DNA from: a virus | Taxonomy: Duplodnaviria; Caudoviricetes | Length of the DNA: 64,000 nucleotides | Virus record (IMG/VR): IMGVR_UViG_3300042892_000699 | Strand: one strand, 5' to 3' | Shown here: positions 48,315 to 64,000 of the stretch, in pieces | How the letters are laid out: each line of letters begins with the position of its first letter | Numbering within the stretch: position 1 is the first letter of the stretch | Made by a program: the position numbers and the translations under genes | The notes under the pieces: model-generated | What the model saw: only the letters and a program-made list of their open reading frames with translations | The model's database searches: none | What the model was told of the DNA's origin: nothing

Positions 48315-49325
48315 ATGGCAACATTAGCAGAAATTCGCGCAAAACTACAAGCATCTTCACAACAAGGCGGCGGGCAATCCGGCGGCGGTGATAATGCAAT
48401 TTACCCTCACTGGAACATGCCAGAAGGTTCGACTACAACAGTCCGCTTCCTTCCTGACGGTGACAGCTCAAATACTTTCTTCTGGATCGAACGTGCAATG
48501 ATCAAATTGCCATTTGCCGGTGTGAAAGGTGAAACCAATTCCAAGCCAGTGACTGTTCAAGTCCCATGTATGGAAATGTGGGGCGAGACATGTCCAATTC
48601 TTACTGAGGTTCGTCCTTGGTTCAAAGACAAGTCTTTGGAAGATATGGGTCGTAAGTACTGGAAGAAGAAGTCATACCTGTTCCAAGGTTTTGTGGGCGA
48701 AAGCAAACTACAGGAAGATAAGACTCCTGAAAATCCAATCCGTCGCTTCATCATCGGCTCACAAATTTTTAACATTGTTAAAAATGCTTTGATGGATAGT
48801 GAGATTGAAGAACTACCGACAGACTTGGTTCGTGGTCTTGATTTCAAGATTGCTAAAACAAGCAAAGGTGGTTATGCTGACTACTCTACTAGCACTTGGG
48901 CTCGTCGTGAACGTGCTCTAAGCGATGCAGAAAATGCTGCAATTGCACAACATGGATTGTATAATCTAAAAGACTTCTTGCCTAAGAAGCCAGGCGAAGT
49001 TGAACTCAAAGTCATGAAAGAAATGTTCGAAGCGTCAGTAGACGGTGAAGCATTTGATATGGATCGTTGGGGTCAATACTTCAAGCCAGCAGGCTATGGT
49101 GGTCGTGACAATGCAGAAGGTGGAGCGGCTAAATCAGCGGCAGCACCGGTGGCTAGACCAGCACCAGTACCTGCCGTTGAAGAGCCAGCACCTTGGGAAG
49201 ATGAAGTTGCAACAGCAGAGAAATCATTCACTCCTCCAGCCGCAAAAGCTGAGAGCGCAGGTGGGGAGGCATCGAGCAGAGCAGCCGATATCATTGCAAT
49301 GATTCGTAACCGTCAAAAAGACTAA
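48315..49325 (+). CDS. gp32: Single-stranded DNA-binding protein
   Basis: VRFLP, VPCMEMWGETCPI, YWKKKSYLFQGFV, GLDFKIAKTSKGGYADYSTS; SD taagga. Confidence 0.88.
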   Translation: MATLAEIRAKLQASSQQGGGQSGGGDNAIYPHWNMPEGSTTTVRFLPDGDSSNTFFWIERAMIKLPFAGVKGETNSKPVTVQVPCMEMWGETCPILTEVRPWFKDKSLEDMGRKYWKKKSYLFQGFVGESKLQEDKTPENPIRRFIIGSQIFNIVKNALMDSEIEELPTDLVRGLDFKIAKTSKGGYADYSTSTWARRERALSDAENAAIAQHGLYNLKDFLPKKPGEVELKVMKEMFEASVDGEAFDMDRWGQYFKPAGYGGRDNAEGGAAKSAAAPVARPAPVPAVEEPAPWEDEVATAEKSFTPPAAKAESAGGEASSRAADIIAMIRNRQKD

Positions 49326-49339
49326 TAGGAGAATAGACT

Positions 49340-50407
49340 ATGTCAAAGGCCTTCGATATTTCGAAGTTCCGCAAGTCTATTACGAAAAGTATTGATGGCT
49401 TGGGAATTGGGTTTAACGACCCCACCGATTGGATTTCAACCGGTAACTACGCCCTAAACTATCTTATCTCGGGGGACTTCTACAAAGGAGTTCCACTAGG
49501 CAAAGTAACAGTTTTTGCGGGCGAATCCGGTGCAGGTAAATCATATATCTGCTCTGGTAACATTATTAAAGCGGCACAAGAACAAGGTATTTTTGTTGTC
49601 TTAGTTGACAGCGAAAACGCCCTTGACGAAAAGTGGTTGCTTGATCTAGGTGTTAATACAAGTGAAGATAAACTTCTAAAACTTAACATGGCTATGATTG
49701 ACGACGTGGCAAAAACCATTAGTGAATTCATGAAAGAATACAAAACCATGCCCGAAGATTCGCGTCCTAAGGTATTATTTGTAATTGATTCATTGGGTAT
49801 GTTGTTGACTCCTACAGACGTTAATCAGTTCGAAGCAGGCGAGATGAAAGGTGACATGGGTCGTAAGCCTAAGGCACTTACTTCATTGGTTCGTAACTGT
49901 GTAAACATGTTTGGCTCGTGGAATGTAGGTATGGTTTGTACAAATCACACATACGCTAGCCAGGATATGTTTGATCCAGATGATAAGATTAGTGGCGGGC
50001 AAGGATTTGTCTATGCAAGTTCTATTGTAGTTGCTATGAAGAAACTCAAACTGAAAACTGACGCTGATGGTAATAAGACTACAACTGTTAACGGTATTCG
50101 TGCAGCTTGTAAGATTATGAAAACACGTTATGCAAAGCCGTTCGAGTCAGTGCAAGTAGAAATTCCGTATACAACTGGCATGAGTCCCTACAGCGGATTG
50201 GTTGATTTGTTCGAAGCTAAAAATATGTTGAAGAAAGAAGGCAACAGTCTTGTTTACACAACAGTCGATGGTGAAATAATCAAACAATTCCGTAAGGCTT
50301 GGGAAAAGAACGAAAAAGACGGGCTAACCATTATGATGGAAGATATTTCCAAGAATGGAGAAAAAGCCTTAGATCCAATAGCACTTGAAGACAATGAGGA
50401 AGCATAA
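49340..50407 (+). CDS. uvsX: RecA-like recombinase
   Basis: ISTGNYALN, GESGAGKS, VDSENA, IDSLG, NHTY, SGGQG. Confidence 0.93.
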   Translation: MSKAFDISKFRKSITKSIDGLGIGFNDPTDWISTGNYALNYLISGDFYKGVPLGKVTVFAGESGAGKSYICSGNIIKAAQEQGIFVVLVDSENALDEKWLLDLGVNTSEDKLLKLNMAMIDDVAKTISEFMKEYKTMPEDSRPKVLFVIDSLGMLLTPTDVNQFEAGEMKGDMGRKPKALTSLVRNCVNMFGSWNVGMVCTNHTYASQDMFDPDDKISGGQGFVYASSIVVAMKKLKLKTDADGNKTTTVNGIRAACKIMKTRYAKPFESVQVEIPYTTGMSPYSGLVDLFEAKNMLKKEGNSLVYTTVDGEIIKQFRKAWEKNEKDGLTIMMEDISKNGEKALDPIALEDNEEA

Positions 50408-50658
50408 TGGAAGAGCAACTAATCTTTGAAATTTGGGACACATTTAGAGATCACATTCCTGAAAAGGGCCGTGAATTTGCAGCGTCACAATTTGTTGATT
50501 TTTTAGTTAACAAAGATGTCGAAGCTGACACATTAGAAGGACTATTAGGGTATGATCCACATCTTGACGATGCTATCGAATTAGTAATGAAAGAATTTAA
50601 TGAAGAAGAAGATGACAGCTTTATTGAAGACGATGATTTCTACGAAGATGAGGATTAA
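50407..50658 (+). CDS. Small highly acidic hypothetical protein, 83 aa
   Basis: TAATG overlap with uvsX; ends EEEDDSFIEDDDFYEDED. Confidence 0.7.
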   Translation: MEEQLIFEIWDTFRDHIPEKGREFAASQFVDFLVNKDVEADTLEGLLGYDPHLDDAIELVMKEFNEEEDDSFIEDDDFYEDED

Positions 50659-50660
50659 TT

Positions 50661-51116
50661 ATGGGATGGTATTCTAAAGTTAGTAAGGACATTGCTCACT
50701 TACCTGACTGCATAGAATACTTTTATAAAGAAATAGATAGTGCAAGGGCCGAAGTTAAGATCTACGGAAAAGTAGAGAAAGCTTCGGCTTCTTTACCTGG
50801 AATTGTTGAACAAAGGTTTAACCAATTGCAGGAAATTGAAGCAGTATTAGAATATTTGAACATTGAGTTGCGCCGTATTCGAAGCAAAGCCTTTAAGAAA
50901 TATCTAGAGAATTATCAAAGAGCACTAAGCAGTCGAGATGTTGAAAAATACGTCGATGGTGAAGCAGATGTTGTTGATATGGAAAAAATTATCAACGAAT
51001 TTGCCATGCTGAGAAATCAATGGCTGGGCATTATCAAGGCACTGGATATCAAACAGTGGCAACTTAGCAATATTATCAAACTCCGCGCTGCCGGATTGGA
51101 CGATATTTCCCTCTAA
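50661..51116 (+). CDS. uvsY: Recombination mediator, UvsY-like
   Basis: Helical, LSSRDVEKYVDGEADV motif equivalent to UvsY ...K.Y...D; located between uvsX and uvsW. Confidence 0.65.
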   Translation: MGWYSKVSKDIAHLPDCIEYFYKEIDSARAEVKIYGKVEKASASLPGIVEQRFNQLQEIEAVLEYLNIELRRIRSKAFKKYLENYQRALSSRDVEKYVDGEADVVDMEKIINEFAMLRNQWLGIIKALDIKQWQLSNIIKLRAAGLDDISL

Positions 51117-51118
51117 CT

Positions 51119-51142
51119 AAAAAAGGACTTGCGTCCTTTTTT
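51119..51142. terminator. Bidirectional intrinsic terminator
   Basis: aaaaaaggac-ttgc-gtcctttttt. Confidence 0.85.
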
Positions 51143-51157
51143 GTTTTCCTGTATAAT
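51129..51157 (+). promoter_or_regulatory. Sigma70-type promoter, -10 ends 6 nt before ATG
   Basis: TTGCGT-N17-TATAAT-gttagt-ATG. Confidence 0.75.
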
Positions 51158-51163
51158 GTTAGT

Positions 51164-52342
51164 ATGAGTATTGAAGACCTAATTATTCTCCTTGCAATGA
51201 AGACCCAAATGAATCCCTATGATTCAAAAATGGTTTGGAGCTTCCATGATCAAATTTCTAGAGGTCTTGGATTCACTGAAAAACAGGCAATTCTTGCAGT
51301 TCGAATACTGCAAAGACAAAAAGAAAAATTAACGCAGATACTTGGACAAGATATCACAAATTTTCTGGAAAATCCCACATATAGAGTACCCCGTAGAACT
51401 ATCAATTCTAACAAACGAATCTCTGTGATTGCTCATAGTGAATACACTAAGGCAATCAAAGTGGAATTTCCTTATAATGAAACCATCTTGGAGAGAATTA
51501 GAAAAGAGCGTCCTAATTTGATACACGCGGAATGGGATAAAGATGAAAAAGCATGGATTTTTGCACTGAACGAACGTAGCATACAATTCCTGATCTCGTT
51601 TGTTGAGAAGGACGAGTTCACTGCTGACGAAGAATTTGTTAATTACATTGAGCAAATACTGGCTATTCAAGAAAATCTTGAAAATTTTGTACCTATGGTC
51701 AGTTATACCGAAAAAATGCCAAAATTTATCAATGTAAGCCATCGTGTGCCTCAACCTGAAACCACAGATTTGTTGGACTCGCTATTTTTAGCAAGAAAAG
51801 TCGGTATACATACATGGGATGATAGTGTCAGTGAGTACCTGGCTGAAAATAATATTGAACAATCTGTAATAGATTTCCTAAATGAAAATCCAGGGGTGAA
51901 TTTTACCGTAAATTTGGAAGAATCTACAATTTACGACATTTCTCGTATTGTTAAAAATCTGTCTCCTTGCATGTTTATCATACCGGGCGGCCTGGAGATG
52001 GAAAAAATTACAAAAAGTTATGAATTTTTAAAATCACTTGATATCACTCCTGAAGAAATGAGTGTGATGTTTAGACTACCTAAAGAAACTGGTGAAAAAT
52101 TCAATAAATTTATCAAAGACGAGCAACTAAACAATCCCATCACTGAAAAAACTCGTGCAGTGTTTATCAGCGGCAAGGTACCGAAGACAGTTATCGAATC
52201 AAAAATTAAATTCAATTGTGTTGTAAACTTCAGCCTACATAGTGTACACTATACAATACGAGAATTTGTGAAAAATCACCATAATGTGATTCACATACTG
52301 GACAAAAAACCACAAAGGAATTTTAACTTTGCCATACTGTAA
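51164..52342 (+). CDS. Hypothetical protein with HARP-like segment, 392 aa
   Basis: IKVEFPYNETILERIRKE...AEWDKDEKAWIF resembles HARP-type motif; adjacent to uvsW. Confidence 0.55.
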   Translation: MSIEDLIILLAMKTQMNPYDSKMVWSFHDQISRGLGFTEKQAILAVRILQRQKEKLTQILGQDITNFLENPTYRVPRRTINSNKRISVIAHSEYTKAIKVEFPYNETILERIRKERPNLIHAEWDKDEKAWIFALNERSIQFLISFVEKDEFTADEEFVNYIEQILAIQENLENFVPMVSYTEKMPKFINVSHRVPQPETTDLLDSLFLARKVGIHTWDDSVSEYLAENNIEQSVIDFLNENPGVNFTVNLEESTIYDISRIVKNLSPCMFIIPGGLEMEKITKSYEFLKSLDITPEEMSVMFRLPKETGEKFNKFIKDEQLNNPITEKTRAVFISGKVPKTVIESKIKFNCVVNFSLHSVHYTIREFVKNHHNVIHILDKKPQRNFNFAIL

Positions 52343-53822
52343 AATAATAATAAAAGACGAGGTCAATGTTAAGATAGAAAATTTAGACCTCGACGCACGA
52401 AAGGCTCTGGTCAAGAAATTCAAGTACGAAGACCCCACAGCTAGGTATCGTCCAGCCTATAAATTAGGTCGTTGGGACGGCAGTGTTAGTTTTTTCGGAT
52501 TAGGTGGAACTACCTATCTATCAATGCTACCACAGGTGTTAACATATCTTGAGAGTAAAAATTACAACATTGATCTTGAAGATAATCGCAAGCCCATTGC
52601 CCTAGATTTTCCTGAAATTTTTGAAGATTTTTGGGGTGATCAGACATGGCCCGAAGGTCATCGATTTGCAGGCAAACCTATTAGACTGCGTGACGATCAA
52701 GTTGAAGCAGTCAATATGTTTCTTAAAAATCCACAGTGTATTCAAGAAATTGCAACTGGTTTTGGCAAGACAATAACCACCGCAACTTTATCGAAAATTG
52801 TGGAAAAATATGGTCGTACAATAACCATTGTTCCTAACAAAAGTCTTGTGGAACAAACAGAGGAAGACTTCATTAACTGTAAATTAGATGTAGGTGTTTA
52901 CTACGGTGACAGAAAAGATCTGAACAAAACGCATACTATTTGCACCTGGCAAAGTTTGAATATTTTAGACAAAAAATCCAAAGATACCACTGATGAAGAA
53001 GTGTTAACTTTAGCAGAATTACTCGAAGGAGTTGCTACAGTTATGGTTGATGAAGTACACATGGCCAAGGCGGAAGTGTTGAAAAACTTGCTAACCCGAA
53101 ATCTTGCCAACGCACCAATACGCTGGGGCTTAACTGGTACTGTACCTAAAGCAGACCACGAATTTCAAAGTTTACGTGCAAGTCTAGGTGAAGTAGTACA
53201 TCAAGTTCGTGCTCACGAATTACAGGAAAAAGGTGTACTAAGTGATTGCCACGTAAACATTATTCAAACGGCAGAGTGGAAAGAATTTAGCGGATATCCT
53301 GAGGAGTTAAAATTCCTAGTAACCGATAATGATAGGATGAGTTACATATCTACGCTAATTAAAGAGATTGCAAACACTGGCAACACCCTTGTGTTAGTTG
53401 ATAGAATCGAGTGCGGAGAATTCCTACAAACTCATCTTAGTGGCTTATTCAATGTTTTGAAAGAAGAACCGGATGTTGCTTTTATATCTGGTAGAGTAAA
53501 AACCAAAGATAGAAAGACTGAATATGACGAAGTTAAAACTGCTACTAACAAGATTATTGTGGCGACTTACGGTGTGGCCGCTGTTGGTATTAATATCCCT
53601 AGGATTTTTAATCTGGTTATGTTGGAGTCCGGAAAGAGCTTTACTCGCGTTATACAATCAATTGGGCGAGGCATTAGAAAAGCAGACGACAAAGACTTCG
53701 TACAAATCTGGGATATTACAGCGTCAACGAAGTATGCAAAGAGACACCTTACTGAACGAAAAAAGTTCTATAAGGATGCGAAATATCCATTCGAAATTCA
53801 AAAAGTGAAATATAACAAATAA
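52329..53822 (+). CDS. uvsW: SF2 DNA helicase, UvsW-like
   Basis: LRDDQ, ATGFGKT, VDEVH, GLTGT, GINIP, QSIGRGIR. Confidence 0.9.
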   Translation: MPYCKIIIKDEVNVKIENLDLDARKALVKKFKYEDPTARYRPAYKLGRWDGSVSFFGLGGTTYLSMLPQVLTYLESKNYNIDLEDNRKPIALDFPEIFEDFWGDQTWPEGHRFAGKPIRLRDDQVEAVNMFLKNPQCIQEIATGFGKTITTATLSKIVEKYGRTITIVPNKSLVEQTEEDFINCKLDVGVYYGDRKDLNKTHTICTWQSLNILDKKSKDTTDEEVLTLAELLEGVATVMVDEVHMAKAEVLKNLLTRNLANAPIRWGLTGTVPKADHEFQSLRASLGEVVHQVRAHELQEKGVLSDCHVNIIQTAEWKEFSGYPEELKFLVTDNDRMSYISTLIKEIANTGNTLVLVDRIECGEFLQTHLSGLFNVLKEEPDVAFISGRVKTKDRKTEYDEVKTATNKIIVATYGVAAVGINIPRIFNLVMLESGKSFTRVIQSIGRGIRKADDKDFVQIWDITASTKYAKRHLTERKKFYKDAKYPFEIQKVKYNK

Positions 53823-56551: not shown

Positions 56552-56858
56552 TAAAAGCGGCTATTATATGGGCTTCAGGACCGTAACCCTAGCTGACGAT
56601 ACTTGTGGTGTAGATTACTTTTATTGGAATCATACTGGAGGCATGAACGGCAAGGGAGAATGGCGTACTGACAGCACCTGTCATAGTCATTGGGCTAATG
56701 TCTATTACTGGACCAAAGATAATCCAGAGCAGTGGGTCGATAGTGATCCTCCTGTGAGATATAGAAAAGCACCAAAGTCTAATCCAGCATTGGCTATCGC
56801 TTGGAACAATGTCCAAGAAGCACTGCGTCAATATGAAATTGTGAAAGCACTAACATGA
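56508..56858 (+). CDS. Hypothetical Trp/Tyr-rich protein, 116 aa
   Basis: WHHTADQQPDKSGYY start; ATGA overlap with next gene. Confidence 0.55.
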   Translation: MKTSIWHHTADQQPDKSGYYMGFRTVTLADDTCGVDYFYWNHTGGMNGKGEWRTDSTCHSHWANVYYWTKDNPEQWVDSDPPVRYRKAPKSNPALAIAWNNVQEALRQYEIVKALT

Positions 56859-57055
56859 GACGACTTAAAAAAGAATTATGGCCATATAAGACCAAAGTTA
56901 ATCTTTTGCACAGTACCAGAGAAGTTGATGAATGGTTAGGAAAGACCTTGGGCAAATTCAAAGGTAAATGGAATGTAGTTCATCACAGTACTTCTATTGA
57001 ATATTATTTTAAACAAGATCGAGATCTTACTATGTTTATGTTGAGGTGGTCATGA
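56855..57055 (+). CDS. Small FxLRW-family protein, 66 aa
   Basis: EVDEWLGKTLG...YYFKQDRDLTMFMLRWS. Confidence 0.65.
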   Translation: MRRLKKELWPYKTKVNLLHSTREVDEWLGKTLGKFKGKWNVVHHSTSIEYYFKQDRDLTMFMLRWS

Positions 57056-57551
57056 CCAGTATTAGTTCTATTGTCGGCGGCTTGAACATCGGTTCAGAAC
57101 ACGAACTGCGACCTATGAAAACGGGAGAAGCTGGCGGATGGGGTATGAAATATACCTGGATTGAAATGGCTCGAACAGAAAGCACTCCCTTGGATCTAAA
57201 TGAACAGGCACAGACTTGGTGCAGAGAACGATTTGGAAATAGTGGCAGTCGTTGGTTTGAAAAGAAAGACAAATTTTATTTTAAAGATGAAAAGGATTTG
57301 ACCTTATTCATTCTGAGGTGGTCATGAGTGATACTGCTAGCTGGATTACATTTGGTAAAGAACGTTATTGGCAACATCCAGACATGGAACAATGGTGCCA
57401 CGAACATATAGGAACCGGTGGGTGGTCCTACCAAACTCCTAAAACTTGGGAAGGCATGAATGGTAAGATTTGGGTTATGCACAGCATGTTTGGCAACACT
57501 ACTTTTGCATTTAAAGATTCTAAAGACTTAACTATGTTTTTGTTGAGGTGG
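57042..57551 (+). repeat. Gene-junction repeat TGAGGTGG(TCATGA)
   Basis: 57042-57055 and 57314-57327 identical 14 nt; 57544-57551 shares first 8 nt. Confidence 0.85.
57052..57327 (+). CDS. Small FxLRW-family protein (start corrected to ATG 57052)
   Basis: QTWCRERFG...FYFKDEKDLTLFILRWS; SD GAGGTG and ATGA overlap. Confidence 0.65.
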   Translation: MTSISSIVGGLNIGSEHELRPMKTGEAGGWGMKYTWIEMARTESTPLDLNEQAQTWCRERFGNSGSRWFEKKDKFYFKDEKDLTLFILRWS

Positions 57552-57560
57552 GGCACATAA
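57324..57560 (+). CDS. Small FxLRW-family protein (start corrected to ATG 57324)
   Basis: EQWCHEHIG...FAFKDSKDLTMFLLRWGT; SD GAGGTG and ATGA overlap. Confidence 0.65.
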   Translation: MSDTASWITFGKERYWQHPDMEQWCHEHIGTGGWSYQTPKTWEGMNGKIWVMHSMFGNTTFAFKDSKDLTMFLLRWGT

Positions 57561-57580: not shown

Positions 57581-57781
57581 ATGATTGAGTTTAAAGTTCC
57601 TAGCGTAGGTAAAGCAGAGGCTTGGTGCATGAAGCACGTTGGGCCTCGTCTCTATTATATTCACGATAGAATAGGTGGAGAAGGTTGGCGCATTATGCCG
57701 CTTCGTGGCGGCGCTGAAATTTTACTTTGCTTAGAGGACGACAAGAAAGCCACAATGGCTATGTTAATGCTGATAGAATAA
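57581..57781 (+). CDS. Small FxLRW-family-like protein, 66 aa
   Basis: EAWCMKHVG...LEDDKKATMAMLML; TATACT 7 nt upstream of ATG. Confidence 0.6.
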   Translation: MIEFKVPSVGKAEAWCMKHVGPRLYYIHDRIGGEGWRIMPLRGGAEILLCLEDDKKATMAMLMLIE

Positions 57782-58164
57782 TGACTACAGAAAATATAAA
57801 ACAATTTTGCCAACATCACAGTATTCGTGTACTTGATACAAACAAGCGGGCACATCGGTACAGCAAAGTCAATTTAAATTACTTTAGAGATCCTATGGAT
57901 TTTAATCGAGTTTATGAAGATGTTATATATGATAGCGAACCGTTGTATACTGTGGAAATTGCTGAAAGTGAATTAGAAAGAATTGCAGACTTCGAATCCG
58001 AGGTGTTTAACAACATGAAGAAGCAAGGGCATTACAGAATGTTTGAAACACTAATGGAGCAGAAAGAACGAGAGAGAGCACTGCGGGACAAATATCCAGC
58101 AGTAAAAAAAGCATACGAACAATATAGCCTAATGTTAAAACTGGCTGAAAGTGGAGAATTATGA
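57781..58164 (+). CDS. Hypothetical protein, 127 aa (start corrected to ATG 57781)
   Basis: TAATG overlap; helical C-terminus PAVKKAYEQYSLMLKL. Confidence 0.6.
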   Translation: MTTENIKQFCQHHSIRVLDTNKRAHRYSKVNLNYFRDPMDFNRVYEDVIYDSEPLYTVEIAESELERIADFESEVFNNMKKQGHYRMFETLMEQKERERALRDKYPAVKKAYEQYSLMLKLAESGEL

Positions 58165-58517
58165 GATTAGAAGGTTTTGTAGAAAAAGGTTGGGGTCACG
58201 AATTAATTTGGGCAACAAACGACAAGTATTGCGGAAAATTACTAAAGTTTAATACCGGTGCTAGATTTAGTATGCATTTCCATTCTGTAAAGGAAGAAAC
58301 CTGGTATGTGTTAAGCGGTGAATTTCAAGTTAGATTTATTGATACGAAGACAGCGGATGAATATTTAGAAGTATTAAAACCAGGCTCTGTGTGGCATAAT
58401 AATCCACTGGTACCACATCAACTGATTTGTCTCGAAGAAGGGACCATTATCGAAGTTAGCACACCGGACAGTGTCGAAGACAATTATCGAGTTGCTAAAG
58501 GAGACAGTCAGAAATGA
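58161..58517 (+). CDS. Cupin (sugar isomerase/epimerase-like)
   Basis: EKGWGHE, SMHFHSVKEETWYVLSG, PLVPHQL, IIEVST. Confidence 0.8.
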   Translation: MRLEGFVEKGWGHELIWATNDKYCGKLLKFNTGARFSMHFHSVKEETWYVLSGEFQVRFIDTKTADEYLEVLKPGSVWHNNPLVPHQLICLEEGTIIEVSTPDSVEDNYRVAKGDSQK

Positions 58518-59302
58518 AAATTTTGATTACAGGGTATAAAGGTTTTATTGGTCAAAATATGGTCAATGCACTAAATGACGAACACGAACTGTCTCTTTTT
58601 GAATGGGGAGAAGAACTTCCAGATTTTAGAGGCTTAGACTGGTGCATACATTTAGGAGCAAATTCGTCTACTACTGAAATGGATGTAGACAAGATGCTAG
58701 ATCAGAATTATGATTTTAGTAGACTTGTTATCAATCAATGTCAGGCAAACAATGTAAATTTGCAATATGCAAGTTCTGCAAGCGTATATGGACTAGGAAA
58801 AGAATTTAACGAAAATGCACCTGTTCATTTGCTAAGTCCATATGCATGGAGCAAATATCTTTTTGAAAGATATGTAAGTGGATTTAGAGAAAAATGGTCT
58901 AACATAACAGTCCAGGGATTTAGGTATTTCAACGTGTATGGACCTCATGAAGATCATAAAGGTGATCAGTCTAGCCCTCATCATAAGTTTACCAAGCAGG
59001 CAGAAGCTACCGGAGTTATCAAGCTATTTGAAAATTCTGAGAATTACAAACGTGATTTTATTTCTGTACATGAAGTAGTTAGTATTCATAAAAAGTTTTT
59101 TAACGTAACTGAATCTGGTATTTGGAATGCCGGTACAGGTCGCGCTACATCGTTTGATAACGTTGCTCGAACAATTGCAGAAGGAATGAAATGTAGAGTT
59201 GAATATATTCCTATGCCTGATAATGTTAAAGCACATTATCAAACATACACATGTGCTGATGTAACTAACCTAAGAAAGTATTATGACCCGAGTAATGGTT
59301 AA
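58514..59302 (+). CDS. hldD: ADP-L-glycero-D-manno-heptose 6-epimerase
   Basis: ITGYKGFIG, HLGANSSTTE, NYDFS, YASSASVYG, PYAWSK, FRYFNVYGPHEDHKG all match HldD/RfaD. Confidence 0.88.
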   Translation: MKILITGYKGFIGQNMVNALNDEHELSLFEWGEELPDFRGLDWCIHLGANSSTTEMDVDKMLDQNYDFSRLVINQCQANNVNLQYASSASVYGLGKEFNENAPVHLLSPYAWSKYLFERYVSGFREKWSNITVQGFRYFNVYGPHEDHKGDQSSPHHKFTKQAEATGVIKLFENSENYKRDFISVHEVVSIHKKFFNVTESGIWNAGTGRATSFDNVARTIAEGMKCRVEYIPMPDNVKAHYQTYTCADVTNLRKYYDPSNG

Positions 59303-59687
59303 CGGAACATTTGATATTCTGCATCGAGGTCATATTGAAATGCTCAACTTTGCTAAAAGCAAAGGAGATGCGGTACTGGTTGTGATTGATACTGATCGTA
59401 GAGTGCAAGAGTTAAAAGGTGATGATCGTCCTATTAACAACCAAGAAGATCGTAAATTTCATTTAGAAAATTTAAAAGCAGTTGACAGTGTATTGTTTTT
59501 TGACAGCAAAGAACAACTTATAGAAATAATGAAAAGCTGGAAACCAGACGTGTATGTAAAAGGCAGCGACTGGAAAAAAGATAGACCTAGCACAGCAGAA
59601 GAATATTGTAAAGAAGTGATCTATTATGACAGAGTCGGCGAATACTCAACTACCAACACCATTCAGAATATTATTAATCGGGGATGA
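59283..59687 (+). CDS. hldC: Heptose-1-phosphate nucleotidyltransferase (stand-alone HldE domain II)
   Basis: NGTFDILHRGH (HxGH), LKGDDRPINNQEDR, YVKGSDW, YSTT. Confidence 0.82.
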   Translation: MTRVMVNGTFDILHRGHIEMLNFAKSKGDAVLVVIDTDRRVQELKGDDRPINNQEDRKFHLENLKAVDSVLFFDSKEQLIEIMKSWKPDVYVKGSDWKKDRPSTAEEYCKEVIYYDRVGEYSTTNTIQNIINRG

Positions 59688-60393
59688 TTGCTTAGATGTT
59701 TATCAGTTTGGAACTGTTGACAGAATAAGTCCCGAGGCACCTGTTCCTGTATTCAAATATAGCTCTAAGGAAGAAAGAGCAGGCATGGCTCGTAATGTCA
59801 AACTCAATCTTGAAGCACTGGGCTGTGAAGTTACATACCTATGCGGAGAAACAAGTGTTAAGACCAGATTAATCGATTCCAAAAGTAAACAACACATTGT
59901 AAGAATTGACAATGATGTTAAATCTAATCCTATTGAATTTGCTTCGGCTATTCCTGCGATTTACGACGCAGTTGTGATCAGTGACTACAACAAAGGTACA
60001 GTTAGCTACGAATTAATCGAAGAACTCGTTGCTTTGAGCATACCAGTGTTCATAGACACTAAAAAGACTGACTTAGAACGTTTTCAAGGTGCATGGGTTA
60101 AGATTAATGAACTAGAGTATAGCAGATTAACAAGCGAGTGTGCTGGGTTAATTGTTACATTAGGTAGCAAAGGTGCTAGACTATGGGACGAAGTGCATCC
60201 AAGTAAACAAGTAGAAGTAAGTGATGTTTGTGGATGTGGTGATACTTTTTTGGCGGCACTAACCACTCAATACCTATATACAAATGATATAAAGAAAGCT
60301 ATAATGTTTGCTAACGTTGCCGCAGGATTAACTGTACAACATTTAGGAAATTACGCACCATCATACGACGAGATTAGAAATGCCGGATATTGA
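59626..60393 (+). CDS. hldA: Heptose-7-phosphate kinase, PfkB family (stand-alone HldE domain I)
   Basis: LLIGDDCLDVY, RISPEAPVPV, VVISDYNKG, DVCGCGDTF. Confidence 0.85.
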   Translation: MTESANTQLPTPFRILLIGDDCLDVYQFGTVDRISPEAPVPVFKYSSKEERAGMARNVKLNLEALGCEVTYLCGETSVKTRLIDSKSKQHIVRIDNDVKSNPIEFASAIPAIYDAVVISDYNKGTVSYELIEELVALSIPVFIDTKKTDLERFQGAWVKINELEYSRLTSECAGLIVTLGSKGARLWDEVHPSKQVEVSDVCGCGDTFLAALTTQYLYTNDIKKAIMFANVAAGLTVQHLGNYAPSYDEIRNAGY

Positions 60394-60970
60394 TATCGAC
60401 TTTGCTGATAGAACAAAAATTCTCAAAATTATCGAGCATGTACCAGCGGCTATTAAAGATAATGGAACTTTTAAAAAGCACAATACTGGCGTATATTGTC
60501 ATTCTATCCCGTACAATTCCATAACTGATACTGCTAGCTTTGACTATAAAGAAGCTGAAAACCGCGGGTATTTTAAGATTGACCTATTAAATGTTGGAAT
60601 TTACAAAGATGTACGAGATGAAGAACATCTCTTAAAATTATTAAATCAAGAACCACTATGGGATCTTTTACAACAGGACGATTTCACTAATATGTTGTTC
60701 CATGTGAACGGTCACGGATCAATTCTAAGACAGATGTTGCCAAATAGCATAAGTCAATTGGCTGCGGTATTAGCTATGATTAGACCGGCAAAACGCTATC
60801 TAATTGGACAAGACTGGAATACTGTAAACGCAGAAATTTGGCAAAAGCCTGCGGGTAATGAGTATTATTTTAAAAAAGCTCACGCTATAGCATATGCGGC
60901 AGCTATTGTAGTTCAAATGAACTTAATTTGCGAAGGTCTTACTTCCTCGCATTCCTTATTAGCTGAATAG
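60380..60970 (+). CDS. Miniature DNA polymerase III alpha (DnaE)-like protein, 196 aa
   Basis: PDIDIDF, KHNTGVY, GYFKIDLL, LAAVLAMIRP, YYFKKAHAIAYA appear in DnaE order. Confidence 0.75.
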   Translation: MPDIDIDFADRTKILKIIEHVPAAIKDNGTFKKHNTGVYCHSIPYNSITDTASFDYKEAENRGYFKIDLLNVGIYKDVRDEEHLLKLLNQEPLWDLLQQDDFTNMLFHVNGHGSILRQMLPNSISQLAAVLAMIRPAKRYLIGQDWNTVNAEIWQKPAGNEYYFKKAHAIAYAAAIVVQMNLICEGLTSSHSLLAE

Positions 60971-62173: not shown

Positions 62174-63178
62174 GTGAACGATATACAATCTGCATTACTG
62201 ACATTACTGCCTTCTAAGAGGAAACTTACATCCGGTGGATGGACCAGTTTTAATGCTCCCTGCTGTCATCACAGAGGAGAACGTCAAGATGAAAAACTGC
62301 GTGGCGGTATTAGAGTAGAGAATGACGGGTTTGTATATCATTGTTTCAATTGTGGATTTGCCGCAGGATGGACTCCTGGTAAAATTCTAAGCAAGAATAC
62401 CAAAAGCCTATTTCAATGGATAGGCATGAATGAGATAGACATAGGTAAACTTAATCTTGCGGCACTCAAGATCAAAGATGACCAGCCCGTTCTTAAGAAA
62501 GCACTAAATTTAGTATTATTAGAAAAACCCTTGCCCGATGGCACAATGTCTGTAATGGAATGGATTAATACCGGGTACTTGCCCGATGTAGCAGAAGACA
62601 TTGGCAAGATAGTAGAATACATTTTAAGTAGGGGTATGGAGCTCGATTGGTACAATTGGATGTGGAGTCCTGCATCGGGCTATGTAGATAGAGTACTAAT
62701 ACCGTTTTATCAAGATGGAAAGGTAGTAGGATACACTGGCAGAAAAATCAATCCCGGCAACCCTAAGTACTTGACAGATAGTCAAAGTGGATATGTTTTT
62801 AATTTGGATCGTCAAGGGTGGAATCGTCAATGCGTCATAGTCGTAGAAGGACAATTTGATGCTATAGCTATAGATGGCGTAGCCATTATGACGAACGAGC
62901 CTAACGATGCCCAGATTGCAAGATTGACTGGATTAGGAAAAGAAATTATAGTAGTACCAGACAGAGATCGCCCCGGTGCCAAGATGCTCAAATCAGCAAT
63001 AACCAATGGCTGGAGTGCTAGTTTGCCTCCGTGGGGCGATGACGTCAAAGATGTAGCAGATGCTGTAAAGAAATATGGACGACTGTATGTGTTAGCCACA
63101 ATCTTGCACTACAAGGTTGCGGGCGAGATAAAAATAAATCTAATGAAGAAGAAACTAGAAGCGTTAAGAGATGAATAA
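62174..63178 (+). CDS. gp61: DNA primase
   Basis: Zn ribbon CCHH...CFNCG, LIPFY, KYL, TOPRIM VVEGQFDA and VPDRD. Confidence 0.9.
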   Translation: MNDIQSALLTLLPSKRKLTSGGWTSFNAPCCHHRGERQDEKLRGGIRVENDGFVYHCFNCGFAAGWTPGKILSKNTKSLFQWIGMNEIDIGKLNLAALKIKDDQPVLKKALNLVLLEKPLPDGTMSVMEWINTGYLPDVAEDIGKIVEYILSRGMELDWYNWMWSPASGYVDRVLIPFYQDGKVVGYTGRKINPGNPKYLTDSQSGYVFNLDRQGWNRQCVIVVEGQFDAIAIDGVAIMTNEPNDAQIARLTGLGKEIIVVPDRDRPGAKMLKSAITNGWSASLPPWGDDVKDVADAVKKYGRLYVLATILHYKVAGEIKINLMKKKLEALRDE

Positions 63179-64000
63179 AAAAGAAAAACCACAAAAACCC
63201 AATTATGACTTTGAAGTGCAAAAGCTGTACTTGGAAATGTTTCTAAGTGATGCTGAGACGTTTGTACGTTGTCAAAATATTTTTGATCCCAAAAACTTTG
63301 ATCAGCGACTGCAAGAAAGTGCAGAGTTCATTACAAAATATGTAGATGAATACAAGGTAATGCCCGAGGCCAATATCGTCAACGCATCTACAAGAAGTCA
63401 GTATAACCCAGTTGCATTGCCCAGAGAAAACTATGAATGGTTAATGAATGAGTTTGAAAACTTTAGCAGACACAAAGGACTAGAAAGGGCAATTATCGAG
63501 TCTAGTGATTTGTTAGAGTCCGGAGACTACGGTCCAGTTGAAAAACTAATTAAGGATGCTATACAGATATCTCTAAACAAAGATATGGGTACAGATTACT
63601 TTGAAGATCCCAGAGCACGTCTGACTAAACTTAAAGATGGCAATGGGCAGATCAGCACAGGATGGCCCAGCATTGATAAGAAATTATACGGCGGATTTAA
63701 CCGAGGTGAACTGAATATCTTCTGTGCTGGATCAGGTGGCGGCAAGAGTTTGTTCTTAGCCAACTTAGGAGTGAACTGGGCACTAGCTGGACTTAATGTC
63801 TTATATCTTACATTTGAATTAGCCGAAGGCCTCGTAGGTATGCGACTCGATAGTATGATGACAGGTATTACAACTCGAGAGATCTTTAAGAACATCGACG
63901 ACGTTGAACTCAAGGTCAAGATGTTGGGCAAGAAGAGTGGTAACTTACAGGTTAAGTATATGCCATCGGGCAAGAACTGTAACGATATCCGTGCCTACTT
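63171..64000 (+). CDS. gp41: Replicative DnaB-like helicase, 3'-truncated by the window edge (absent from the ORF track)
   Basis: My translation from ATG 63171: MNKKEKPQKPNYDFEVQKLYLEM...ISTGWPSIDKKLYGGFNRGELNIFCAGSGGGKSLFL...YLTFELAE. Confidence 0.9.
   Translation, partial: MNKKEKPQKPNYDFEVQKLYLEMFLSDAETFVRCQNIFDPKNFDQRLQESAEFITKYVDEYKVMPEANIVNASTRSQYNPVALPRENYEWLMNEFENFSRHKGLERAIIESSDLLESGDYGPVEKLIKDAIQISLNKDMGTDYFEDPRARLTKLKDGNGQISTGWPSIDKKLYGGFNRGELNIFCAGSGGGKSLFLANLGVNWALAGLNVLYLTFELAEGLVGMRLDSMMTGITTREIFKNIDDVELKVKMLGKKSGNLQVKYMPSGKNCNDIRAY

Follow-up and report, generated by a model that had tools for sequence, protein, structure and literature searches.

The stretch of DNA analyzed here, referred to below as the window, comprises 64,000 nucleotides of a virus of the Caudoviricetes (Duplodnaviria; IMG/VR record IMGVR_UViG_3300042892_000699); the record itself is an 80.9-kb fragment with a CheckV completeness of 22%. 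From 48.3 to 64 kb, the window carries a T4-type replication/recombination block in which a putative heptose cassette is followed by an open reading frame (ORF) in frame +1 that runs from an ATG at 60380 to a TAG at 60970 and encodes 196 residues (Table 1). An earlier note, made from the bare sequence, had described this ORF as a miniature DnaE that retains all catalytic motifs and is coupled to the heptose cassette, and had proposed either a repurposed nucleotidyltransferase or one subunit of a split polymerase. The latter is supported by homology and fold, by conserved residues and purifying selection, by the co-occurrence of two gene pieces and by a predicted interface. The ORF very probably encodes the C-terminal subunit (the C piece) of a two-subunit, drastically trimmed DnaE-type polymerase, a minimal form of the α subunit of DNA polymerase III (Pol III), of T4-related group 2.2 jumbo phages.

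Most of what had been read from the raw sequence of the ORF was correct. The clean start and stop are there, and the five quoted motifs are all present in the claimed DnaE order, at residues 2–8, 33–39, 63–70, 127–136 and 162–173. The equivalents of the three catalytic aspartates (D3, D5 and D68) are likewise present and are invariant in 86 homologues, together with K66 and P136, while D7, H34, G37, A128, I134, R135, K165, H168 and A173 are each at least 90% conserved. The described loss of the PHP, thumb, clamp-binding and OB regions and of much of the fingers was also confirmed, as the ORF spans only residues 400–784 of E. coli DnaE. The claim that all catalytic motifs are retained did not hold, however. 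The G[GS] triphosphate-binding motif (GRGSGAGS in DnaE) is not in the ORF and lies on a separate protein in relatives; the ORF alone is therefore no complete enzyme.

Relationship to DnaE was examined at the levels of profile and structure. Residues 3–188 of the ORF matched positions 8–196 of the 197 in PHROG 11778, annotated as DNA polymerase, at E 4.8e-67, and PHROG 405, a full-length DnaE-type family of 1190 positions, matched at E 1.9e-6. A profile built from the 86 homologues matched E. coli DnaE (PDB 2hnh) at E 2.1e-5, with K66 and D68 aligned on K553 and D555 and K165 and H168 on K758 and H760. The family profile was needed for this result, since a single-sequence search of PDB sequences with the ORF was marginal (E 0.037). 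Pfam-A gave nothing for the ORF at E<0.1, including no match to PHP, thumb, fingers, clamp-binding/(HhH)2 or OB domains, and PF07733 scored 12.9 bits, under its gathering cut-off of 23.9. The AlphaFold2 model computed from the same 86-homologue alignment was very confident (predicted local distance difference test score, pLDDT, 96; predicted template modelling score, pTM, 0.88), and its first 16 Foldseek matches were all Pol III α or PolC-type polymerase entries. In VIA-align, 188–194 of the 196 residues superposed on 14 DnaE/PolC entries with Z scores of 6.2–9.9, compared to only 3.0 for the best unrelated entry. Z was 9.9 on Taq DnaE 461–886, 9.6 on PolC 971–1360 and 8.8 on E. coli DnaE 400–784, of which residues 407–538 are reduced to 45 in the ORF and 642–742 to 14. 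The structure prediction and superposition suggested in the earlier note thus gave a fit to C-family polymerases only. Because of the PHROG 405 match, the profile match to 2hnh, the confident model and the restriction of structural matches to DnaE and PolC, the resemblance to DnaE goes well beyond chance.

The C piece is intact and under strong purifying selection. The ratio of nonsynonymous to synonymous substitution rates (dN/dS), taken over 302 pairs restricted to dS of 0.05–1.5, had a median of 0.126, an interquartile range of 0.10–0.15 and a maximum of 0.22. Orthologues are 186–204 aa long with a mode of 192 (n=81), 71 of the 81 begin with MPDIDIDF, and the start and stop are clean in 80 related loci. 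The relaxed selection expected of a decaying remnant was accordingly not seen, dN/dS being about 0.13 and lengths tightly conserved, and a pseudogene was rejected on dN/dS. By tblastn, the C piece has matches in 96 phage records, none of them above 50% identity; among the matches listed, nearly all are jumbo phages of about 285–490 kb (RaK2, 121Q, PBECO4, PA5oct, Atu_ph07, Phosso, SCTP-2 and Xoo-sp13). In metagenomes, the family forms about 8000 clusters at 90% identity and 439 at 50% identity, with complete members almost all of 185–215 aa, and a protein identical to the window's ORF is found on 70 contigs, the longest of 376 kb. In one metagenomic protein of 233 aa (P0234), the first ~127 residues correspond to the N-terminal half of the C piece and the remainder is unrelated sequence; the contig may be chimeric or frameshifted.

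A second small DnaE-like gene (the N piece) lies far from the C piece in relatives. Scans with PF07733 detected it in all three complete cultured relatives, as RaK2 ORF162 (172 aa), Phosso gp138 (177 aa) and PA5oct gp288 (169 aa). It is also present in four of five large contigs of the window's clade, 136–185 kb away from C pieces that are 66–74% identical to the window's ORF; in relatives overall, the two genes are 30–220 kb apart. The search for complementary DnaE pieces and gp43 advocated in the earlier note, carried out in relatives, therefore found both the N piece and a gp43-type family B polymerase. A separate N-terminal DnaE piece of about 170 aa in nearly every large relative examined (3/3 cultured genomes and 4/5 large clade contigs) supports the suggestion that the ORF is one subunit of a split polymerase.

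The point at which the enzyme is divided could be mapped precisely. The N piece ends with the segment WGVGRGSSVASYVLYLIGVHKIDSIKYNLDxxEFLK, within which GxGRGSSxxS is invariant; in relatives, GRGSS is on the N piece only and not on the C piece. Residues 79–173 of the N piece superpose on E. coli DnaE 280–395 (Z 9.1) and on M. tuberculosis DnaE1 306–415 (Z 10.9). MPDIDIDF of the C piece corresponds to (S)MPDFDVDF of DnaE, so that the N and C genes abut in DnaE coordinates. The break is in the loop between ...ERFLNPER and (S)MPDFDVDF of DnaE, inside the Pol-β-type core, and exactly between the G[GS] and DxD motifs. Intein-mediated splicing was considered and rejected, the pieces ending and starting within DnaE-homologous sequence with no extra residues for intein halves. 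The earlier note had also raised the prospect that the remaining DnaE domains would be found elsewhere and form an ordinary split polymerase. Together, however, the two pieces cover only E. coli DnaE 280–784 in about 290 residues, and no PHP, thumb, clamp-binding or OB parts turned up in the PF07733 scans of the relatives. A structure search found no DnaE counterpart for N-piece residues 1–78, several of which, in the relative G003 (L100 1231–1464), contact the C piece in a predicted complex; judged from this model, they may replace contacts made by the PHP domain or thumb in DnaE.

Several observations suggest that the two halves belong together. First, their distributions agree. The N piece was found in 111 phage records and the C piece in 96, with N/C counts by genus of 34/34 for Escherichia, 11/11 for Pseudomonas, 10/11 for Klebsiella, 8/8 for Erwinia, 8/8 for Salmonella, 4/4 for Yersinia, 4/4 for Xanthomonas and 2/2 for Agrobacterium; the surplus N-piece records are Bacillus and Clostridium phages with full-length DnaE. 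Second, a possible natural N+C fusion of 375 aa (P0211) is encoded at L105 1066–2193 on an ENA metagenome contig of 2415 bp. Its N part shares 37% identity with a stand-alone N piece over 102 residues and its C part 38% with a C piece, the spacer between them has the length found in DnaE, and a gene called on the opposite strand overlaps the 3′ end, an arrangement also seen where the C piece stands alone; it is known from this single 2.4-kb contig, and an assembly artefact is possible. The passages of Iyer et al. 2021 (PMC7824862) that deal with this enzyme describe the split form and do not mention a fused one. Third, a complex predicted for the window's C piece and the N piece of G003 scored 0.91, compared to 0.00 for the best of three controls; 58 of 80 solved complexes came up to that mark, as did 2 of 110 mismatched pairs. 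Since structures of intact DnaE have been solved, this score shows likeness to the intact fold and is no proof of binding. Three runs agree in at least 98% of their contacts, with a partner pLDDT of at least 85. The DxD strand (C residues 2–9) packs against N residues 132–145 (WGVGRGSS) in the prediction, and the best-defined contacts, between C residues 6–8 and N residues 136–138, imply that it pairs with the strand leading into GRGSS, as the fold requires. The two pieces would very probably bind each other in vivo.

These findings lead to a proposed mechanism. The N and C proteins would dock and rebuild one Pol-β-type active site, with the MPDIDIDF strand lying at the interface against the strand before GRGSS. 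The N piece of about 170 aa would supply the first half of the palm and the G[GS] motif, with GRGSS holding the triphosphate; D3, D5 and D68 of the C piece would hold two metals; and the retained fingers motifs RP (R135–P136) and KxxH (K165, H168) would complete the deoxynucleoside triphosphate (dNTP)/template pocket. The resulting heterodimer of about 370 aa would probably be a distributive, non-proofreading DNA polymerase, because it is without thumb, clamp-binding part and PHP domain, and it would assist the gp43-type family B replicase by filling gaps, extending primers or taking part in repair. The chance that the pair polymerizes DNA on a template is slightly better than even. The broader proposal, that this mini Pol III is an active second polymerase of the T4-type replisome, working alongside the family B replicase as the smallest natural C-family polymerase, is tentative and rather doubtful. 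By analogy, such a second polymerase could possibly take over from the primase as eukaryotic Pol α does, or fill gaps.

A number of points weigh against this interpretation. Neither the N piece nor a family B polymerase was found in the window's 80.9-kb record, which is 22% complete, and no match with the right contig signature for the cognate N piece of the window's phage was found in the cluster tables. The predicted complex was computed with the N piece of a relative, whose C piece shares 74% identity with that of the window, and the score may partly reflect memory of solved intact DnaE structures. Template-directed synthesis is not assured, as the thumb and about 100 DNA-contacting fingers residues are gone. 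The conserved gene runs around the pieces include virion genes, so that a core-genome order frozen in place, rather than functional linkage, may account for them. Finally, no biochemical or genetic test of the pair was found in the literature. The main text of the PA5oct omics paper does not mention the PA5oct N and C genes.

The best-surviving alternative is that the N+C heterodimer forms but carries out a chemistry other than templated DNA synthesis, such as template-independent tailing, extension of RNA primers with nucleoside triphosphates (NTPs), or production of a nucleotide for signalling or protection, as known from other enzymes of the Pol-β fold. The thumb and the large fingers part that hold primer-template in DnaE are deleted, relatives already possess a complete family B replicase, and the model has N-piece residues 1–78 in contact with the C piece even though they have no DnaE counterpart. 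However, the surviving R135–P136, K165 and H168 represent the strongly conserved DnaE motifs RP and KSH, the N and C genes are both located within replication modules, and the ORF gave no match to cyclase- or CCA-type families in Pfam, PHROG and Foldseek searches. Such a different chemistry is considered improbable.

Another possibility is a stand-alone miniature nucleotidyltransferase coupled to the ADP-heptose cassette. By their sequences, the four genes at 58161–60393 are consistent with heptose-nucleotide synthesis. The 14-nt overlap with a heptose kinase ORF that had been noted exists (PfkB-type ORF, 59626–60393), the same PfkB overlap recurs in 14 related loci, and in two relatives a further cytidylyltransferase-like gene is located close to the N piece. 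However, of the 76 loci for which 900 nt or more of upstream sequence was available, only 19, all in the window's sub-clade, have a PfkB gene within 700 nt upstream of the C piece. In five sub-clade loci without the cassette, the 145-aa gene that precedes it in the window (57727–58164) directly abuts the C piece, and in the remaining 52 loci other genes are upstream; no heptose cassette was found at the C-piece site in RaK2, PA5oct or Phosso. Because an upstream ORF of whatever kind overlaps the start of the C piece by 1–19 nt in nearly all loci, the 14-nt overlap reflects the tight packing usual for phage genes. The most fitting view of the cassette is that of an accessory insertion separating two core genes, the 145-aa gene and the polymerase gene.

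The coupling to the heptose cassette claimed in the earlier note is thus physically real in the window, but in relatives it extends only to the sub-clade, and linkage with hld-type genes, which had been put forward for checking, comes down to the same 19/76 loci and to none of the three cultured genomes. A repurposed enzyme of NDP-heptose chemistry is not supported, since the NTP-binding motif resides on another protein and the cassette is a variable insertion; a stand-alone nucleotidyltransferase lacks support on the same two grounds, and this alternative as a whole is very unlikely. In short, the DnaE likeness had been recognized correctly and the heptose link was spurious. The cytidylyltransferase-like gene near the N piece encodes 154 aa (PHROG 7878, annotated as heptose kinase/adenylyltransferase) and occurs in G003 (L108 6859–7320), past a GroES-like gene and about 1 kb after the N piece, and in G004 (L102 2691–3113); none was found at that place in G001, RaK2, PA5oct or Phosso. 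It is a second, variable sugar-nucleotide gene beside a polymerase half.

The remaining alternatives fare no better. A non-catalytic replisome accessory in which the DnaE fold serves just as a scaffold would agree with the extreme trimming and with the separate full replicase of relatives, but invariance falls precisely on the catalytic positions (D3, D5, K66 and D68, and GRGSS in the partner), which a scaffold would not need, and this role is highly improbable. Decay of a once full-length phage DnaE, suggested by about one sixth of the DnaE length and a PF07733 score of 12.9 bits against a cut-off of 23.9, is scarcely credible for a family of 439 clusters at 50% and ~8000 at 90% identity with a dN/dS of 0.126, tight lengths, clean starts and stops in 80 loci and a confident model. 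Both decay and a purely structural role are unlikely because of the low dN/dS and the invariant catalytic residues.

The enzyme favored here, a two-subunit polymerase of which the ORF is the C-terminal part, belongs to a family that has been described. Iyer, Anantharaman, Krishnan, Burroughs and Aravind (2021, Viruses 13:63, PMC7824862) reported a split minimal Pol III α of group 2.2 jumbo phages from sequence analysis, and the Atu_ph07 genome paper (PMC6102473) noted that the Pol III α gene is conserved in RaK2-like phages. The C piece of that enzyme is PHROG 11778 (RaK2 ORF124, PA5oct gp220 and Phosso gp437) and its N piece is PHROG 11127 (RaK2 ORF162, PA5oct gp288 and Phosso gp138). The window's ORF is of the same family and length and likewise starts at the DxD strand, its neighbors are the same (an antisense small gene, a virion protein, a primase and a helicase), and its phage appears to share the T4-like replication genes and jumbo genome, here of about 375 kb, of group 2.2. 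It differs from the cultured copies in being at most 50% identical to them and in belonging to an uncultivated metagenome clade, and its sub-clade differs from the cultured loci in having the heptose cassette directly upstream.

Compared to other C-family polymerases, the split minimal enzyme exhibits several distinctive features. First, it shares with DnaE and PolC (PDB 2hnh, 3e0d, 5lew and 3f2b) a Pol-β-type palm with three aspartates, the K553 equivalent and the RP and KSH fingers motifs. Unlike these enzymes, which are single polypeptides of more than 1100 aa, it consists of two polypeptides of about 170 and 196 aa and is without the PHP, thumb, (HhH)2/clamp-binding, OB and τ-binding parts. 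Second, in cyanobacteria, DnaE-n and DnaE-c are encoded by two distant genes and their products are joined by intein trans-splicing. The phage enzyme is similarly encoded by two distant genes whose products must meet, but the break is elsewhere, the N piece ending at the ERFL equivalent and the C piece starting two residues before the first catalytic aspartate, and the outcome would be a minimal enzyme of two non-covalently associated proteins in place of a full-length DnaE joined by splicing. Third, full-length phage DnaE of Bacillus and Clostridium phages, which the N piece detects weakly, is also a phage-borne C-family polymerase. Unlike these, the enzyme type of the window is minimal and split and has a family B polymerase alongside it in relatives. 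Bacillus phage G and other jumbo phages of group 3.2, according to PMC7824862, have a host-like, unsplit and PHP-bearing DnaE as their sole replicase.

The family and its split were therefore already known in silico, and the window's ORF is a new member from an uncultivated clade. The proposal that it represents an undescribed activity stands in part: the family, as a split minimal Pol III α, is in Iyer et al. 2021, and no literature report of an activity was found. What is new is the exact split point, the mapping onto DnaE 280–395 plus 400–784, the dN/dS values and the matched genus distribution; to these may be added the possible natural fusion P0211 and the high-scoring predicted heterodimer.

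If the pair is active, it would define a minimal catalytic unit of the bacterial replicase family, with about 290 DnaE-homologous residues where palm, thumb and fingers otherwise take up about 500 and the whole protein 1160. It would also be a natural example of an active site divided between two gene products, place B-family and C-family polymerases together in one replisome, and may offer a compact polymerase scaffold. It would further be relevant to the question of how Pol III originated (Iyer et al. 2021, PMC7824862).

Table 1. Features of the window at and around the C piece (coordinates on the 64,000-nt window).
Feature	Coordinates	Strand	Details
gp32-like single-stranded DNA-binding protein, UvsX, UvsY, 392-aa gene (no PHROG match), UvsW-type helicase, in this order	48315–53822		
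Cupin, SDR epimerase, cytidylyltransferase-like protein, PfkB kinase	58161..60393	+	Pfam hits; upstream neighbor of the C piece
Probable C-terminal subunit of split minimal Pol III α (P0001)	60380..60970	+	196 aa; ORF, PHROG 11778, AlphaFold2
PDIDIDF, residues 2–8	60383..60403	+	β-strand with metal-binding D3 and D5 (DnaE D401, D403), plus D7
KHNTGVY, residues 33–39	60476..60496	+	Equivalent of DnaE HAxGVV palm motif; H34, G37
GYFKIDLL, residues 63–70	60566..60589	+	Strand with K66 and third catalytic aspartate D68 (E. coli K553, D555)
LAAVLAMIRP, residues 127–136	60758..60787	+	Fingers motif; E. coli 631–640 MIALVALFRP
YYFKKAHAIAYA, residues 162–173	60863..60898	+	Fingers motif; E. coli 754–765 YGFNKSHSAAYA
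Antisense neighbor, 122 aa	60939..61307	-	PHROG 11637, E 1.5e-33; convergent, 32-nt 3′ overlap with the C piece
Virion structural protein homologue, 278 aa	61328..62164	+	PHROG 14467, E 1.5e-11; 69/80 loci
gp61-type DNA primase	62174..63178	+	PHROG 47, E 1.1e-39; 70/80 loci
gp41/DnaB-type replicative helicase, runs off the window	63171..64000	+	PHROG 19, E 3.8e-41; 61/80 loci

In the replication block of the window (Table 1), the UvsW-type helicase gene is followed by small genes, the heptose cassette, the C piece, the antisense gene, the virion homologue, the primase and the helicase. Across the 80 related loci from IMG/VR in which neighbors were counted, most losses fall at the ends of contigs, and the same downstream gene order is found in RaK2, PA5oct and Phosso. 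The 122-aa antisense gene adjoins the C piece in 78 of the 80 loci as well as in these three phages; it gave no Pfam lead, and an ESM Atlas look-up returned no usable result. Counterparts of the virion homologue are annotated in RaK2 and PA5oct as structural proteins detected by mass spectrometry, and the gp41/DnaB-type helicase is 490 aa long in longer contigs of the same phage. Elsewhere in the genome, the N piece is followed by a GroES-like gene and a gp44-type clamp loader in seven genomes. The remark that T4-like phages replicate with a B-family enzyme agrees with a gp43-type family B polymerase of 825–1013 aa, present in RaK2, PA5oct, Phosso and three of five related contigs.

Two further observations concern other genes of these phages. 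In RaK2 (NC_019526.1, 109915–110736), a stand-alone DnaQ-type 3′–5′ exonuclease is encoded about 4.4 kb upstream of the C piece, and one is also present in a related contig (G001:C1:111135–111590); none was found in the window's own fragment or in three incomplete related contigs. In E. coli, the PHP domain, which is absent from mini Pol III, binds ε. Upstream of the heptose cassette, at 56855–57560 of the window, three consecutive overlapping small ORFs of 66, 93 and 80 aa have similar ends (...DLTMFMLRWS, ...DLTLFILRWS and ...DLTMFLLRWGT) and appear from their sequences to be a tandem array of paralogues.

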